A DNA stretch of 21,351 nt from a virus (taxonomy: Duplodnaviria > Heunggongvirae > Uroviricota > Caudoviricetes). The notes beneath the pieces are model-generated. The model was not told where the DNA came from. It searched no databases and saw only the letters and a program-made list of their open reading frames with translations. The DNA lies in the IMG/VR virus record IMGVR_UViG_2861043448_000004, positions 1 to 21,351 of that record; one strand, written 5' to 3'. A program made the translations under genes and the position numbers. Below are positions 3,135 to 18,108 of this stretch, in pieces. The first letter of the stretch is position 1. Each line of letters opens with the position of its first letter.

Positions 3135-3296
3135 TTCAAAGGGATGGGGCAGGTTTTTCCTCTTGCGCATGCAAGGGCGGCTCTGATAATGAACAGTAAT
3201 ATTTTACTGTTGAGCTTATGCTCACTGATCCTGCCGGGCAGGATGTTCAACGGTTCCAATATATCCTGCCCCTTCCGCTTTTAAAAAGGATCTTTT

Positions 3297-3848
3297 ATGC
3301 ATGACAATATTTGGTTTACATATAAAGCACGTATCCAAGCGCACCATCGACTAGAATGGCTTGAAAAACACTCTCAATTTATCCTCGTTTGGTATGCTAT
3401 ATTGAGTGCGGTACTTTCAATTGTAACGTTGCGATTTCCAAAGGTTCTAGGAGATAATACAGATGTCGTTGCGGCGATACTTTCAGTGGCTCTACTGGGT
3501 ATTTCTCTGATCGTATCTAACCTAGATTTTCGTGGTCGAGCAATAGCCATGAGAAGGAATTATATTGCACTACAGCGACTCTATTTTGACATTACCACCA
3601 GTCAACAGTTATCTCTTGAACAGAAAGAAAAATATTTTAATTTGCTCAATGAGGTTGAGAATCACCGTGACATAGATGATAAAATTTCAAGGGTAACTCA
3701 AGTTGGACTTAAGACGAGGATCCCCACACAAAAAGAAAAAATAATTGTTATTTTATGGATATTACTTCGAATATTTATTACTGCCGCACTTTATATACTC
3801 CCATTAATATATCTTTGGATTGACTATGACTGCAAGCAGAATTTTTAA
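3297..3848 (+). CDS. Predicted multi-pass inner-membrane protein, partner of the reverse transcriptase
   Basis: 183-aa ORF with AGGA Shine-Dalgarno 6 nt upstream; hydrophobic helices FILVWYAILSAVLSIVTL, VVAAILSVALLGISLIVSNL and C-terminal IIVILWILLRIFITAALYILPLIYLWI; AT-rich codon usage unlike flanking genes; 3' end overlaps the RT start by 23 nt. Confidence 0.7.
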   Translation: MHDNIWFTYKARIQAHHRLEWLEKHSQFILVWYAILSAVLSIVTLRFPKVLGDNTDVVAAILSVALLGISLIVSNLDFRGRAIAMRRNYIALQRLYFDITTSQQLSLEQKEKYFNLLNEVENHRDIDDKISRVTQVGLKTRIPTQKEKIIVILWILLRIFITAALYILPLIYLWIDYDCKQNF

Positions 3849-5196
3849 AAAGTCATTCTCGAAAAAAAATCTTCTAAAAGTATACTCTGAAAAAATCAAA
3901 GAATCAGGAGCGATTGGCATAGATCGGATTCGCCCATCAAAACTTGATTTGACAATAAAAAATGAGATCACTTTCATTTTTGAAAAGGTTAATTCTGGCA
4001 ATTACAAATTTACAGCATATAAAGAAAAATTAATATCTAAAGGCGCTAACTCTACACCCAGACAGATTTCCATACCAACTGCTAGGGACAGAATTACTCT
4101 TAGAGCTCTCTGTGAATGCCTTACGGAAATATATCCTAAGTCCAGATTAAAACTACCACATACAGTAATTGACTCATTGAAAGAAGCATTAAACAACAGT
4201 CTATATGCTGAATATGCAAAAATAGATCTTAAAAGTTTCTATCCTTCAATTGAACATAAATTGATAATTAATGCAATAAAAAATAAAATTAGAAAAAAAG
4301 AAATTAGACAGTTAATAACATCATCATTAATCGTGCCTACTGTAAGTGGAACCACAGGAAGCAAAGGTATCCCTAATAATACCAGAGGAGTACCTCAGGG
4401 ATTAGCGATATCAAACATTTTAGCTGAAATATCACTATCTAATTTCGATGATGAAATCAATAAAATGCATGACATATGGTACATGCGATACGTTGATGAC
4501 ATTCTTATTTTAACACCAAAATATCAAGCAACAAAAATAGCTTCTCATATCATTGATAAGCTTCAATCATTAAATTTAAACCCACATCCATTAAATGAAG
4601 AGAACTCAAAATCCAAAGTAGGCAGTTTGGATGAAAGTTTTAACTTTTTGGGATACCACATAGAAAATCGAGAATTATTGATAAAACATGAGAGCATTCT
4701 TAGATTTGAGTCATCCTTAGCAAAAATTTTTACTGCATATAGGCACGCTCTACTACAAGCTAAAAGTAAGCGTGATAAAGAACGAGCTGTTGCATATTGT
4801 CAGTGGAAACTAAATCTCAGAATTACGGGATGTGTGTTTGAAGGTAAACGATTGGGATGGGTATCGTACTTCTCACAAATAACCTCAACAGCTCAACTTC
4901 GCTCTGTTAATCATACTATCAATAATCTTATCCGCCGATTCGGCCTTTCATCAGAAATAAAACCAAAATCTTTGATTAAAACTTTCTATGAACTCCGCAG
5001 AGGTAGAGCGGAGACTTTTAAATACATACCTAACTTTGACAATCTACATATATCTCAGAAACGAGAACTTGTTTCTATGTGGATAGGTAAAGAGAAGGAA
5101 AAAAAACTTAGCAATAGTGAAATAGAGAGGAAGTTTAAATTTAAAATTGCGAAATCAGTAAAAGAGCTTGAAGAGGATATTTCAGGAATATCATAG
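3826..5196 (+). CDS. Reverse transcriptase (defence-associated, non-retron motif pattern)
   Basis: 456 aa from the ATG at 3826 (track ORF begins at a TTG at 3820). RT motifs are all present: GIDRI, RQISIPTARDRITLRAL, YAEYAKIDLKSFYPSI, GVPQGLAISNILAEISL, YMRYVDDILIL (YVDD catalytic box), FNFLGYHI (FLG-type motif 7 rather than the retron VTG); about 170-aa C-terminal extension; AT-rich. Confidence 0.85.
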   Translation: MTASRIFKKSFSKKNLLKVYSEKIKESGAIGIDRIRPSKLDLTIKNEITFIFEKVNSGNYKFTAYKEKLISKGANSTPRQISIPTARDRITLRALCECLTEIYPKSRLKLPHTVIDSLKEALNNSLYAEYAKIDLKSFYPSIEHKLIINAIKNKIRKKEIRQLITSSLIVPTVSGTTGSKGIPNNTRGVPQGLAISNILAEISLSNFDDEINKMHDIWYMRYVDDILILTPKYQATKIASHIIDKLQSLNLNPHPLNEENSKSKVGSLDESFNFLGYHIENRELLIKHESILRFESSLAKIFTAYRHALLQAKSKRDKERAVAYCQWKLNLRITGCVFEGKRLGWVSYFSQITSTAQLRSVNHTINNLIRRFGLSSEIKPKSLIKTFYELRRGRAETFKYIPNFDNLHISQKRELVSMWIGKEKEKKLSNSEIERKFKFKIAKSVKELEEDISGIS

Positions 5197-14460: not shown

Positions 14461-14693
14461 GCTGCACCTCCGAGATGCTTCATGTTTTTTCCGGAGCGAA
14501 AGGCTATAAGCGGCATACTGACGCGGTAATTACGGCCCAGCGGTTCACAAATCACCTTCTGGCATTCACGGTCAACCAGGCTAACACGTAGAACATGCCC
14601 TGCAGGTGTGGTGTACCACTGCCCAACTGTAGGAATTGATGTTTTTTTACGCTGAAGCAAACGGCAAATATTGAGGATCAACGGATTAAGCAT
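14457..14693 (-). CDS. Hypothetical small phage protein (78 aa)
   Basis: ORF with ATGA-type overlaps to both neighbours in the early-right operon; no recognised family. Confidence 0.45.
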   Translation of the reverse strand: MLNPLILNICRLLQRKKTSIPTVGQWYTTPAGHVLRVSLVDRECQKVICEPLGRNYRVSMPLIAFRSGKNMKHLGGAA

Positions 14694-15522
14694 GACGATG
14701 CCCTCCGCTGATATTCAGGAGACGGTGAATATGAAAATTAGCCTTATCCGCCAGACGAATACGTTCAGCCTGCAAGTTAAGAAGGGTTTCTACCAGAACT
14801 TGATGCGCCTGCGGATCCGAAAGAGTTACCTTGCGCAGAGCACGTAGTGCAGTTGTTACATAACTGAGTTTATGTAAGTCTTCATCATTCAGACGAGTGA
14901 GGGCTGGGACAGTAGCCATGATGGCAGCCTCCGATAACAGTGAATTACCTTCACCACCGGAAACGCCAATTTCGCTGGTGGTGAACTGAACGGGGTTGGC
15001 GTAACCGGCGTTATCGGAAACCGGCGCACCTTTCGGTGCCCCCGTCCAGCCCACCATAATTTGGGTGTGCACAGACGCAGACGATAAAAAAGACGCTGGC
15101 GCGTCATATATCGCCGATAACATTTCCAGGACGCCAATCCCGGCACCCGCTTTATAAGGTGCCTGAACAGTGTAACGTCCCGGAATGGCAGAATCAATGT
15201 GCTGGTGGTCCTTCACACTCAACAAAATCACGCCTGAATTTCCACAAAGGACTAAAGCACTCATGCGGGTAGTCTTTGCGAAGATAGATAACGCGCTGTG
15301 TTTCTGGCTCCCAACGAATAACATGGACATAAAGCCCTCTTCCGTCACGAAACCAGCGGTTAAGTTCCTGCACAACTCGCCCCCCACAGTCAGGTAAAGT
15401 TCTCTGTGGTTACTTACAGCCAGGTGATTTGGTAATCTGCATTCATGCCGTAACAACAGGTGTTCAGCGACACTGACCACCAGCTGTTGCGACAAACGGT
15501 TATTTGCCGTTAAACTGTTCAT
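14686..15522 (-). CDS. Hypothetical phage protein (278 aa), possibly YdaU-like
   Basis: Long intact ORF, translationally coupled to the upstream gene; family assignment tentative and from memory only. Confidence 0.5.
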   Translation of the reverse strand: MNSLTANNRLSQQLVVSVAEHLLLRHECRLPNHLAVSNHRELYLTVGGELCRNLTAGFVTEEGFMSMLFVGSQKHSALSIFAKTTRMSALVLCGNSGVILLSVKDHQHIDSAIPGRYTVQAPYKAGAGIGVLEMLSAIYDAPASFLSSASVHTQIMVGWTGAPKGAPVSDNAGYANPVQFTTSEIGVSGGEGNSLLSEAAIMATVPALTRLNDEDLHKLSYVTTALRALRKVTLSDPQAHQVLVETLLNLQAERIRLADKANFHIHRLLNISGGHRHA

Positions 15523-16404: not shown

Positions 16405-17079
16405 ATGAAAACAGTCCATGACATCCGGCGGTCTAACGCCAGAAAACTGAGAGATGGTGTTGGCGGGAATTCTTCCTTTGCCACCATGATTGATCGCGAG
16501 CCAACCCAGACCAGCAGGTTTATGGGAGATGGTGCAACTAAAAATATCGGTGACAGCATGGCACGGCACATCGAAAAATGTTTCGACCTGCCTGTCGGAT
16601 GGCTTGATCAAGAACACCAGACAACGAACATCACAAAAAAACCTGACGTTTCAATCACTAACAAACAAATAACGTTAGTCCCTGTCATATCATGGGTACA
16701 GGCCGGAGCATGGAAAGAAGTTGGCTATTCTGAGGTTGATTTGAGCACAGCAGAAACTTATCCCTGCCCTGTACCCTGTGGCGAAATGACTTATATCTTG
16801 CGGGTGATTGGTGATTCAATGATTGATGAGTACCGCCCGGGAGACATGATTTTTGTTGATCCTGAAGTCCCTGCCTGCCACGGTGACGACGTTATTGCAT
16901 TGATGCACGATACAGGCGAAACCACCTTCAAGCGGTTGATAGAAGATGGAACACAGCGTTACCTCAAAGCATTAAACCCAAACTGGCCTGAACCTTACAT
17001 TAAGATCAACGGTAATTGCTCTATAATTGGTACAGTGATTTTCTCAGGAAAACCAAGAAGATACAAAATAAAGGCCTAA
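16405..17079 (+). CDS. CI-like prophage repressor with LexA-type S24 autopeptidase domain
   Basis: 224 aa; N-terminal HTH; Ala-Gly cleavage site in WVQAGAWKE; catalytic Ser in VIGDSMIDEY and Lys in TTFKRLIEDG. Confidence 0.85.
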   Translation: MKTVHDIRRSNARKLRDGVGGNSSFATMIDREPTQTSRFMGDGATKNIGDSMARHIEKCFDLPVGWLDQEHQTTNITKKPDVSITNKQITLVPVISWVQAGAWKEVGYSEVDLSTAETYPCPVPCGEMTYILRVIGDSMIDEYRPGDMIFVDPEVPACHGDDVIALMHDTGETTFKRLIEDGTQRYLKALNPNWPEPYIKINGNCSIIGTVIFSGKPRRYKIKA

Positions 17080-17091
17080 TCAATATTTATA

Positions 17092-17113
17092 ACCTGCTTC
17101 GGCAGGTTTTTTT
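17092..17113 (+). terminator. Intrinsic terminator after the CI gene
   Basis: ACCTGCttcgGCAGGT hairpin followed by TTTTTTT. Confidence 0.65.
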
Positions 17114-17117
17114 ATAC

Positions 17118-17161
17118 TTGACAATGTACCCTTAAGATACATAATGTATCTATAGGATACA
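17118..17161 (+). promoter_or_regulatory. pL-like promoter overlapped by two operator sites
   Basis: TTGACA (17118..17123), CATAAT (17140..17145); operators TGTACCcttaaGATACA (17125..17141) and TGTATCtatagGATACA (17145..17161) share the half-site family seen in the OR region. Confidence 0.5.
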
Positions 17162-17745
17162 TAACACAGGCAAGATTAAACTAAATTTGGTTGTAACACG
17201 GCGTATGGCACATGCGTCGTTAGCGGTCTGGGGACGTTAAAGGGGACAATCCACTCCTTGCTCGGGCAAACAAACCAGGTAGCCGGAATGTGCAAGTCAA
17301 TGATGATGCTGATAAGACGCCTAACCAGCGTGGCGATCCGGTTTGACGCCTGGGAAGAGACCAGGGTGCAACGATGAGGGCATTTATGGAACCGCGACAA
17401 AGTGTGGTGCCGTAACTGGCTAAGTGCTCTCAGCGTTGTGGTAATCCGCGAAATGGCGCGGCGGTAAGTATGGCGGGGTTACTCTTTCCCCGTTGAGGAC
17501 ACCGGATTGTCAGGTTGACCATACGCCTGAGTGACAACCCCACCACAACAGCCACTGCTTTGGCGGTACCAGTTTGTACACTTGCTTCCGGCTGGTACCG
17601 CTCTTTTTACAAAACAGAGAAGAGCATCACCGGACGACGGGCTCATAACCCAATCCATCCGGGCGGCTGCCACCGCAGGTGTTCTTCTCTGTTTTGTGGA
17701 GAAACCAACCGACCTTGCAGGGTCGATATGATGAGGAGCAGCAAA

Positions 17746-18108
17746 ATGGCTAGCGAACGCAGTACTGATGTGCAGGCATTTATCGGGGAGCTGGACGGCG
17801 GCGTATTTGAAACCAAAATCGGCGCAGTTCTCAGTGAAGTCGCTTCCGGTGTGATGAACACGAAAACCAAAGGTAAGGTCTCACTCAACCTGGAAATCGA
17901 ACCATTTGATGAGAACCGTGTGAAAATCAAACACAAACTCTCATATGTTCGCCCGACTAACCGCGGGAAAATTTCCGAAGAAGACACCACCGAAACGCCG
18001 ATGTATGTCAATCGCGGTGGTCGCCTGACTATTCTGCAGGAGGACCAGGGACAATTACTGACTCTTGCCGGTGAACCTGACGGAAAACTCCGCGCAGCAG
18101 GTCGTTAA
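17746..18108 (+). CDS. Hypothetical phage protein (120 aa), YfdP-like
   Basis: ATG at 17746 with GAGGAG Shine-Dalgarno 8 nt upstream; resemblance to CPS-53 YfdP is from memory by size and position next to a YfdQ-like gene. The 197-aa track ORF is an upstream over-extension. Confidence 0.5.
   Translation: MASERSTDVQAFIGELDGGVFETKIGAVLSEVASGVMNTKTKGKVSLNLEIEPFDENRVKIKHKLSYVRPTNRGKISEEDTTETPMYVNRGGRLTILQEDQGQLLTLAGEPDGKLRAAGR

Follow-up and report, generated by a model that had tools for sequence, protein, structure and literature searches.

What does a lambdoid phage without an N gene place between its leftward early promoter and the first gene of that operon? The question is raised by positions 17162-17745 of the IMG/VR virus record IMGVR_UViG_2861043448_000004 (hereafter the window, meaning the whole 21,351 nucleotides (nt) that were analysed). 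The window is a lambdoid prophage of Escherichia coli, and this interval lies where lambda has its nutL-N slot and HK022 its putL-nun slot. We found that the interval is non-coding and consists of at least five modules. These modules probably form a processed non-coding RNA array (A-core, A2, B and C) that ends at an intrinsic terminator and is followed, in read-through transcripts, by D, the leader of the gene yfdP. The locus displays promoter and terminator motifs, homology to the Qin prophage and to phage P1, folds supported by covariation, no coding signal, and a cassette order that recurs in unrelated phage types.

The plus strand of the interval folds far better than its shuffles (z = -4.95, and z = -3.18 for the minus strand), and the invariant G-U pairs are confined to the plus strand. 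The structured RNA lies on the plus strand. BLAST comparisons with the yfdP loci of 31 species, with phages, P1, TL-2011b and Qin revealed that the interval is modular, its units differing in distribution. The modules are the following:

17197-17368, plus strand: A-core, a conserved structured RNA of ~170 nt with five helices and a pseudoknot, supported by covariation
17368-17439, plus strand: A2, a spacer hairpin (predicted fold) with arms GCAACGAUGAGGGCAUUUA (17368-17386) and UAAGUGCUCUCAGCGUUGU (17421-17439)
17438-17545, plus strand: module B, a homologue of the 190-nt Qin DicF precursor in its 5' part and of the leader of the P1 ban operon
17559-17608, plus strand: module C, a DicF-type 3' end that opens with UUUGGCGGUACCAG and is an intrinsic terminator
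17609-17697, plus strand: module D, a long hairpin defined by inverted repeat, fold and covariation

Module B links this interval to a known small RNA. The region 17435-17557 is 89% identical over 123 nt to positions 2752-2874 of the Qin locus L157, just upstream of dicF. Module B also displayed 75% identity to P1 68739-68832, in the ban leader beside an annotated 'dicF-like region'. The differences from the P1 version are compensatory, with UUGUCA/UGACAA exchanged for UUGCCA/UGGCAA and GUAUGG/CCAUAC for GCAUGG/CCAUGC. In Qin, DicF occurs as species of 53 nt and 190 nt without an internal promoter, RNase III making the 5' end of the 190-nt form and RNase E the short form (PMC10448788). Measured 190 nt upstream from where dicF ends, the RNase III cut of Qin falls between GUGCG and CUUCCGGUUGUGG, in the 3' arm of a long hairpin. 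The 3' arm of A2, AAGUGCUCUCAGCGUUGUGG, is homologous to this Qin arm. The fold prediction gives A2 a stem of ~17 pairs with one bulge, and A2 is thus predicted to be an RNase III-type stem. The spacer hairpins share the arm consensus (A)CAAC-N-AGAGCAUU ... AGUGCUCU-N-GUUGUGG, which fits RNase III processing stems and perhaps recombination boundaries as well.

The window contains the setting of a DicF-type RNA: the cI/pL context, the structured 5' precursor part, ~137 nt in DicF RNAs, with 89% identity, the homologous hairpin arm at the cleavage site, and a terminator. Like the dicBF operon of Qin, this is a repressor-controlled pL-type operon, with an intrinsic terminator that opens with UUUGGCGGUA.CAGUUU in both, and with a long hairpin before the next gene (in Qin this hairpin has a stem of ~20 bp and lies between dicF and dicB). 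The two operons also differ. Qin carries ydfABC where the window has the A-core, the downstream gene is dicB in Qin and yfdP in the window, the long hairpin of Qin and the D hairpin are without sequence homology, and the body of the small RNA is not the same, as the window holds neither an Rfam DicF match nor ftsZ complementarity. Judged from its sequence, the DicF-type part is a variant of the known DicF precursor type. This fits one of three readings put forward in the initial annotation, that of a prophage small RNA, in that a homologue of the Qin DicF precursor is followed by an intrinsic terminator.

The terminator is formed by two elements, the first of which the initial annotation had missed:

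17563-17572/17592-17601, plus strand: stem of the module C terminator, a perfect 10-bp inverted repeat
17602-17608, plus strand: T-run TCTTTTT of module C

A simple terminator scanner passed over module C, the loop of which measures 19 nt. Nevertheless, module C has what defines a Rho-independent terminator, namely a stem with a T-run directly after it, both kept in relatives. The sequence TTTGGCGGTA(C/T)CAGTTT is common to module C and K-12 dicF, and the hairpin and its T-run (T5-8) occur in all aligned relatives, while the letters vary. The same stretch had been described as a boxA-like antitermination element, for which the consensus is (C/U)GCUCUUUAACAA. The string in question, CGCTCTTTTTAC at 17599-17610, is present, but it is made of the last three bases of the terminator stem (17599-17601) and the T-run. 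It gave one match where 0.10 is expected by chance at up to one mismatch, and at least one match also arose in 9 of 100 shuffles, so that the string alone is weak evidence. In relatives this position reads CCGTCCTTTTT, GCCGCACTTTTTT or GCCGCCCCTTTTT. Because the 'boxA' letters vary while the hairpin and T-run stay, the boxA reading falls, and a boxA/Nus-factor site is ruled out here.

We also considered module C as an orthologue of DicF. The Rfam DicF family (RF00039) had no match in the window, even at E<=10 on a 106-nt slice, while K-12 dicF scores 76.7 bits. In RNAduplex, K-12 DicF pairs with the ftsZ start region at -38.5 kcal/mol across -29..+25. For module C, complementarity to ftsZ amounts to -24.8 kcal/mol, weaker than 97% of shuffles (mean -31.9), and lies away from the ribosome-binding site. 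These two tests rule out orthology. Module C is either a DicF-type 3' module or simply the terminator of B.

Upstream of these modules lies the A-core, for which the following structure was obtained:

17199-17207/17211-17219, plus strand: helix P1
17223-17237/17270-17283, plus strand: helix P2, with a variable tip
17278-17296, plus strand: invariant joining sequence GGUAGCCGGAAUGUGCAAG
Plus strand: helix P3, a variable hairpin
17317-17320/17328-17331, plus strand: helix P4
17323-17326 with 17340-17343, plus strand: pseudoknot of a CACC-type loop
17349-17353/17361-17365, plus strand: helix P5, with a GAAGAGA loop

A motif scan of IMG/VR for exact matches to GGTAGCCGGAATGTGCAAG recovered more than 120 stretches, and together with the genome loci these yielded at least 105 distinct variants of the A-core. 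In an alignment of 27 non-redundant sequences, 96.2% of the cells were paired, and 84 cells were compensatory as compared with at most 16 in slid controls, a level reached by none of 500 shuffles. Covariation supports helices P1, P2, P4 and P5, as well as the pseudoknot of the P4 loop with a downstream GGUG. The pseudoknot reads CACC/GGTG in 61 and AACC/GGTT in 21 of the 82 parsed variants, mixed combinations being absent; this split may go back to a single evolutionary event. The invariant junction and loop sequences are GGUAGCCGGAAUGUGCAAG, AGCGGUC, UCACCA, GGUGUGAC and GAAGAG. RNAalifold favours an invariant long-range GCACAU:AUGUGC pairing (17208-17213 with 17288-17293) that excludes helix P1. 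GCACAU is the loop and 3' arm of the P1 hairpin, and AUGUGC is part of the joining sequence. Since helix P1 shows compensatory G:C to A:U changes, it was kept in the model. It is possible that both pairings form, and a conformational switch may exist here.

The A-core is not restricted to lambdoid phages. It was also found in phages P1 and P7, between tRNA-Ile and ban, in P1-like phage-plasmids and other lambdoid phages, in phiV10/TL-2011b and other epsilon15-like phages, in phages of Klebsiella, Salmonella and Enterobacter, and in prophages of Kosakonia and Phytobacter. Among 5426 complete E. coli genomes, 1832 carry it, with 554 places on plasmids. It has no match in Rfam, and among the 39 full-length or near-full-length chromosomal and plasmid matches listed from RefSeq, none has an RNA annotation under it. 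The A-core is a conserved and mobile structured RNA.

The order of the cassettes recurs in phages of other types. The phiV10-like array, seen in TL-2011b and a second contig, consists of a promoter-like site, a hairpin, the A-core, an A2-type hairpin, tRNA-Arg(UCU), a DicF-like small RNA that ends with CCGCCCUUUUUAC, and a second terminator, the whole unit lying between virion genes. This is the cassette order of the window (hairpin, A-core, hairpin, slot, DicF-like RNA and terminator) at the same spacing. In the phiV10-like operon, however, the slot holds a genuine tRNA-Arg(UCU) instead of B, and the unit stands alone, without D-yfdP after it. A DicF-type terminator follows the A-core motif by 284-304 nt in 67 of 113 distinct loci, with either tRNA-Arg or B in the slot. 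Module B occupies the tRNA slot precisely, starting with GUGG exactly where the tRNA starts. Genuine tRNAs were detected at the equivalent slot in L036 (TL-2011b), L052 and L018, while in the window ARAGORN found none within 2.5 kb of the A-core motif and Rfam no tRNA. The tRNA-Arg(UCU) of TL-2011b, at 3242-3315 of L036 on the plus strand (73.3 bits in Rfam, also called by ARAGORN), is absent from the feature table of that phage, which has instead a 'hypothetical protein' coding sequence on the opposite strand at 3248-3499.

Meanwhile, the non-coding region of the P1 ban operon combines a B-like module and a copy of the A-core at 71015-71194 (78% identity) with tRNAs (tRNA-Asn/Thr/Ile) in one operon. 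Its arrangement differs from that of the window, as the B-like module is near the promoter, the A-core stands directly after tRNA-Ile and upstream of ban, and A2, D and yfdP are lacking.

The last module before yfdP is the long hairpin D. It is accompanied by two smaller elements of the yfdP leader:

17609-17628/17678-17697, plus strand: outer stem of D
17630-17634/17658-17662 and 17663-17666/17673-17676, plus strand: inner hairpins of D
17638-17651, plus strand: conserved loop of D, including CGGGCUCAUAACCC
17710-17725, plus strand: small hairpin CGACCUUGCAGGGUCG, with CGGCGGUGGCAGCCGCC at that position in other genera
17733-17738, plus strand: Shine-Dalgarno sequence GAGGAG before the yfdP ATG at 17746

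The inverted repeat 17611-17623/17683-17695 is perfect, as had been observed at the outset, and extends to 25-nt arms (17609-17633/17673-17697) that are 84% complementary. With 18 contiguous pairs and extensions, the stem reaches the ~two turns typical of RNase III-type stems. An alignment of 19 distinct sequences from more than 10 genera had 93.9% of its cells paired and 12 pairs with compensatory changes; slid controls gave at most 6, and none of 500 shuffles reached the observed value. Folding and covariation in relatives, which had been suggested as a check, thus support both the A-core and the D folds. The long hairpin is real and conserved before yfdP. The T-run said to end it is, by contrast, part of the 3' arm, reads GUUGUGUGG in most relatives and is not conserved. 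A terminator role for the D hairpin itself is not supported.

The inner loop of D is conserved in sequence as well as in pairing (GGCUCAU..CCCAAUC). Over 14 nt, positions 17638-17651 (CGGGCTCATAACCC/CGGGCUCAUAACCC) match the E. coli initiator tRNA (metZ) exactly in its anticodon stem-loop, the three G:C pairs included. Conservation across genera extends to CAU and its CCCAAUC flank, with variation in some genera at the G that opens GGG and at the two As that follow CAU. The likeness may be either mimicry or a relic.

The order of terminator, "AC", D, GGAGAAAC, small GC hairpin, Shine-Dalgarno sequence and yfdP is kept across genera. D precedes yfdP in Escherichia, Shigella, Kosakonia, Phytobacter, Enterobacter, Leclercia, Mangrovibacter, Atlantibacter, Superficieibacter, Scandinavium and Pseudocitrobacter, as well as in Salmonella phage ST64B, and reduced versions occur in Providencia. 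In ST64B (locus L167, 1180-1945), the pL leader comprises ~700 nt of non-coding sequence made of other modules, with the same ending of C, D, small hairpin and yfdP (sb37); it contains GGTGAATGCGGCTCAGCGCACGCGG, which is also found after dicF in Qin. P1 holds weak matches (E 0.02-0.95) to ACGGG.TCATA.CCCAATC and AGTG.TCTCA.C.TTGTGGT at 2239-2310 and 2494-2536 of its locus L035. These fall in the region annotated plp/upl, on the opposite strand, where more RNA cassettes may be present.

Other relatives carry only a part of the interval or none of it. In SfV-type phages the common part is C-D-yfdP, and an open reading frame (ORF) replaces the A-core and B. In SfV itself (locus L002, 3152-3631), orf33 (98 amino acids (aa), PHROG 3195 of unknown function) and a terminator fill this slot, a swap of protein for RNA just after pL. 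In K-12, the CPS-53 prophage is without modules A-D before yfdP, and what it has in common with the window is confined to the final ~25 nt upstream of the ATG; the 357-nt region before yfdP (4248-4604 of the CPS-53 locus L166) is unannotated and unrelated to these modules. No copy of the A-core, A2, C or D was seen in K-12, where we inspected CPS-53 upstream of yfdP and Qin, the latter carrying only B and DicF.

The surroundings of the interval identify the transcript to which it belongs:

16405-17079, plus strand: cI-like repressor gene (Pfam Peptidase_S24)
17091-17108, plus strand: terminator of the cI-like repressor gene
17118-17145, plus strand: pL-like sigma-70 promoter, TTGACA-16 nt-CATAAT

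The pL-like promoter claimed in the initial annotation agrees with the consensus at 11 of 12 positions, sits directly after the terminator of the cI-like gene, and overlaps operator-like repeats (GATACAT). Transcription would start near 17152. Divergent genes on the minus strand encode a cro-like protein, cII (CP76) and replication functions, while the plus strand continues after the interval with yfdP (ATG 17746), yfdQ (DUF2303) and a PrtN-type excisionase gene. This arrangement of repressor gene and promoter, divergent minus-strand genes and plus-strand yfdP, yfdQ and excisionase identifies the plus strand as the leftward early operon. The 661 bases around the element are identical in many RefSeq genomes, and the strings and coordinates given earlier for this locus were correct on re-checking. 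Rfam 15 gave no match for the interval beyond chance level (whole window at the gathering score; 16900-17900 and 17520-17625 at E<=10). The only Rfam matches in the window are C4 and isrK, both elsewhere. The C4 antisense RNA (82.8 bits) adjoins the isrK RNA (63.7 bits) at 14974-15162 on the minus strand. Both overlap a 278-aa ORF at 14686-15522 of the same strand (Pfam Ash family; annotated as 'immunity region' in SfV), so that RNA and ORF calls conflict there.

Based on these findings, we postulate that the leftward pL transcript opens with an untranslated stretch, the interval, made of mobile RNA cassettes and not of a nut or put site. Transcription from pL (~17152) would yield the A-core, A2 and B in turn and then reach the terminator at 17559-17608, where many transcripts would stop. 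RNase III would cut the A2 stem, as at the homologous stem of Qin, and this cut would free an A-core RNA of ~220-280 nt and a B-plus-terminator RNA of ~175 nt, the putative counterpart of the 190-nt 'long DicF'. By this analogy the array would be processed in the phage of the window as well; RNase III and RNase E processing has been published for the Qin homologue only (PMC10448788). Transcripts that read through would run into D, the conserved 5' leader of yfdP with its RNase III-type stem of 18-20 bp. D may separate the mRNA from the small-RNA part and set the stability or the translation of yfdP mRNA. In such a scheme the A-core, B and D would all be functional elements.

Several observations weigh against this scheme. 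SfV keeps C-D-yfdP with an ORF in the place of the A-core and B; the two halves can therefore occur apart, and it may be that they do not act jointly. A spacer hairpin does not come after every A-core, P1 being an exception. Module B shows little diversity, with 12 variants. Module C is not a DicF orthologue, since its ftsZ duplex is weaker than those of shuffles and the Rfam DicF search was negative. Finally, sequence conservation in the interior of D hints at a role beyond that of a simple RNase III site.

Tentatively, the A-core and D may be given more specific roles, in a joint reading that we regard as unlikely but worth spelling out. The A-core would constitute a hitherto undescribed family of complex, pseudoknotted RNA in temperate phages of the P1-like, epsilon15-like and lambdoid types, acting either as a put-like antiterminator or as a processed trans-acting RNA, and D would be a mimic of the initiator-tRNA anticodon arm. 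As an antiterminator, the A-core might represent a new polymerase-modifying class, distantly related to put through a shared stem-I hairpin. As a trans-acting RNA, it might manipulate the host in company with the rare-codon tRNAs and DicF-like small RNAs that would be delivered alongside it. The mimic in D might be aimed at the 30S P site or initiation factor 3 (IF3), at methionyl-tRNA synthetase (MetRS), or serve as a decoy for nucleases that cleave tRNA-fMet.

We find it improbable that the terminator and D together constitute a regulated attenuator or translational operator for yfdP/yfdQ, with a factor bound to the D loop. Candidates would be YfdP or some other phage protein, MetRS, another RNA, and the 30S subunit or IF3. 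The invariance across genera of the order from the terminator through D and the small hairpin to the ribosome-binding site and yfdP speaks for such a device, as do the conservation of the D loop beyond pairing and its exact initiator-tRNA anticodon stem-loop. Yet no alternative pairing that would disrupt the terminator was seen, and no ligand-type Rfam family matched. In the relatives inspected, the D loop could pair with the ribosome-binding site of yfdP over just 4-5 bp, and these pairs are not conserved. The loop bases that vary in some genera, in GGG and after CAU, add to these objections.

A similarly low probability attaches to the A-core as a cis-acting processive antiterminator RNA, which by analogy with put would form a new and larger class, modifying RNA polymerase to read through the DicF-type and later terminators where an N gene is lacking. 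Put itself suppresses termination and pausing without protein factors, by way of the beta-prime zinc-binding domain of the polymerase. The initial annotation had suggested a put-type element like that of HK022 and had remarked on the absence of an N-like gene. The second observation holds, as Pfam and PHROGs detected no N-like protein among the left-operon proteins, YfdP, their neighbours and SfV orf33, returning only families of unknown function (YfdP itself has no Pfam match and belongs to a PHROG of unknown function). The first is not supported. Put RNAs were collected from HK022 (L and R), HK639, phiEt88, UPF_BP1, CobraSix, S9-5 and PdC23 and combined into an eight-RNA covariance model. 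The HK022 putL and putR sequences came from the genome, and the structure (stem I AACGGCG...GUCGG; stem II GGCGGG.UCAGGA.GA.CGGCAAU) from a cryo-electron microscopy study (PMC9378689). Under default filters this model returned nothing in the window at E<=10; once the filters were removed, 17100-17800 reached 4.3 bits at most, as against 96.6, 92 and 55.3 bits for the controls HK022 putL, HK639 putL and HK022 putR. An HK022 put-type RNA in the interval is thus not supported. BLAST with putL found HK75, O276, phiEt88, UPF_BP1, CobraSix, S9-5, HK639 and PdC23, and no phage carrying the leader of the window was among the matches.

A likeness to put is nonetheless seen. As in HK022 and HK639, a lambdoid phage without N has a structured RNA close to the promoter of its left operon. 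The A-core is the first structured element there, starts ~45 nt after the putative pL start and has an intrinsic terminator downstream. Helix P1 shares ACGGCG...CAUGCGUCG with put stem I in alignment, and the G.A/G.U interior of the second helix recalls put stem II (PMC9378689). The resemblance of P1 to stem I is a lead and not evidence of membership, as this segment (17199-17219) scores 1.1 bits, for stem I only. The A-core has five helices and a pseudoknot in ~170 nt, more than twice the length of put (~74 nt, two stems), and lacks the 5' duplex of put. It also occurs in contexts that are neither promoter-proximal nor lambdoid. In P1 it immediately follows a tRNA and stands ~2.3 kb away from the ban promoter, and in phiV10-like phages it is found within a short tRNA/small-RNA unit ending at terminators, which disfavours a purely promoter-proximal antiterminator. 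Moreover, SfV runs the same left operon without an A-core, and no further convincing plus-strand terminator was found before ~20285.

The leader of lambda N provides another comparison. In lambda, an RNase III-sensitive long hairpin holds a position like that of D. Both leaders stand just after pL, with a long RNase III-type hairpin directly before the first early-left gene. Unlike lambda nutL, the leader in the window has no conserved boxA, its boxA-like letters being those of a terminator, and no N-like protein goes with it.

Still less probable is the view that B, D and perhaps C are decaying tRNA or small-RNA cassettes without present function, carried along between useful genes. Module B in the tRNA-Arg slot, beginning with GUGG like that tRNA, the tRNA-fMet-like anticodon arm in D, the lack of DicF's ftsZ-pairing body in C and the presence of yfdP without B, C or D in CPS-53 would all agree with decay. 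Against this, pairing is preserved through compensatory substitutions, for D across more than 10 genera and for B between its E. coli and P1 versions, and neutral remnants would not hold pairing at 94%.

The possibility of coding remains to be considered. The initial annotation saw no plus-strand ORF of 60 aa or more. This is true for ATG starts, but it fails when GTG and TTG are admitted, since a 66-aa ORF that starts with GTG (17531-17731) and an upstream extension of yfdP with a TTG start (from 17515) are both in the mechanical ORF list. Both cross D, whose segment length differs among relatives by non-multiples of 3. The ORF from the invariant ATG at 17289 ranges from 6 to 96 aa in three frames among relatives; this variable length and frame speak against its being a gene. 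Across the A-core and the interval no conserved coding was detected, with no three-base or codon periodicity and with indels that are not multiples of three. A conserved protein-coding gene spanning the interval was looked for in relatives and not found, structures being conserved instead. Phage Ayreon carries annotated hypothetical proteins of 40 aa (locus L001, 4159-4278, plus strand) and 64 aa (4380-4574, minus strand) at the equivalent of ~17258-17377 and ~17479-17673 of the window. These calls are probably spurious, because the tested plus-strand frames are unconserved in relatives. That the interval encodes small proteins, be it from the ATG at 17289, the 66-aa GTG ORF or the minus-strand ORFs annotated in Ayreon, has almost no probability in our view: mechanical ORFs and the Ayreon record speak for it, while the shifting length and frames, the missing periodicity, the indels and variation that tracks base-pairing speak against it.

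The A-core and D have no Rfam family, no annotation in the inspected records and no describing paper in the literature searched, though older papers may mention them. That the K-12 loci inspected yielded no copy of the A-core, A2, C or D may explain why they were overlooked. These findings further point to 'hypothetical protein' calls in phage records that are likely spurious, and to a tRNA left without annotation there. They have implications for the understanding of lambdoid phages of the SfV, ST64B, cdtI and mEp460 types, which lack an N gene and whose left operon opens with 450-700 nt of unstudied untranslated RNA. In the window, this pL leader is built of exchangeable RNA cassettes, one of which links the DicF precursor of K-12 to a much wider family. 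Another, the A-core, is carried by one in three complete E. coli genomes and by the model phage P1, and has gone unannotated in the matches inspected.

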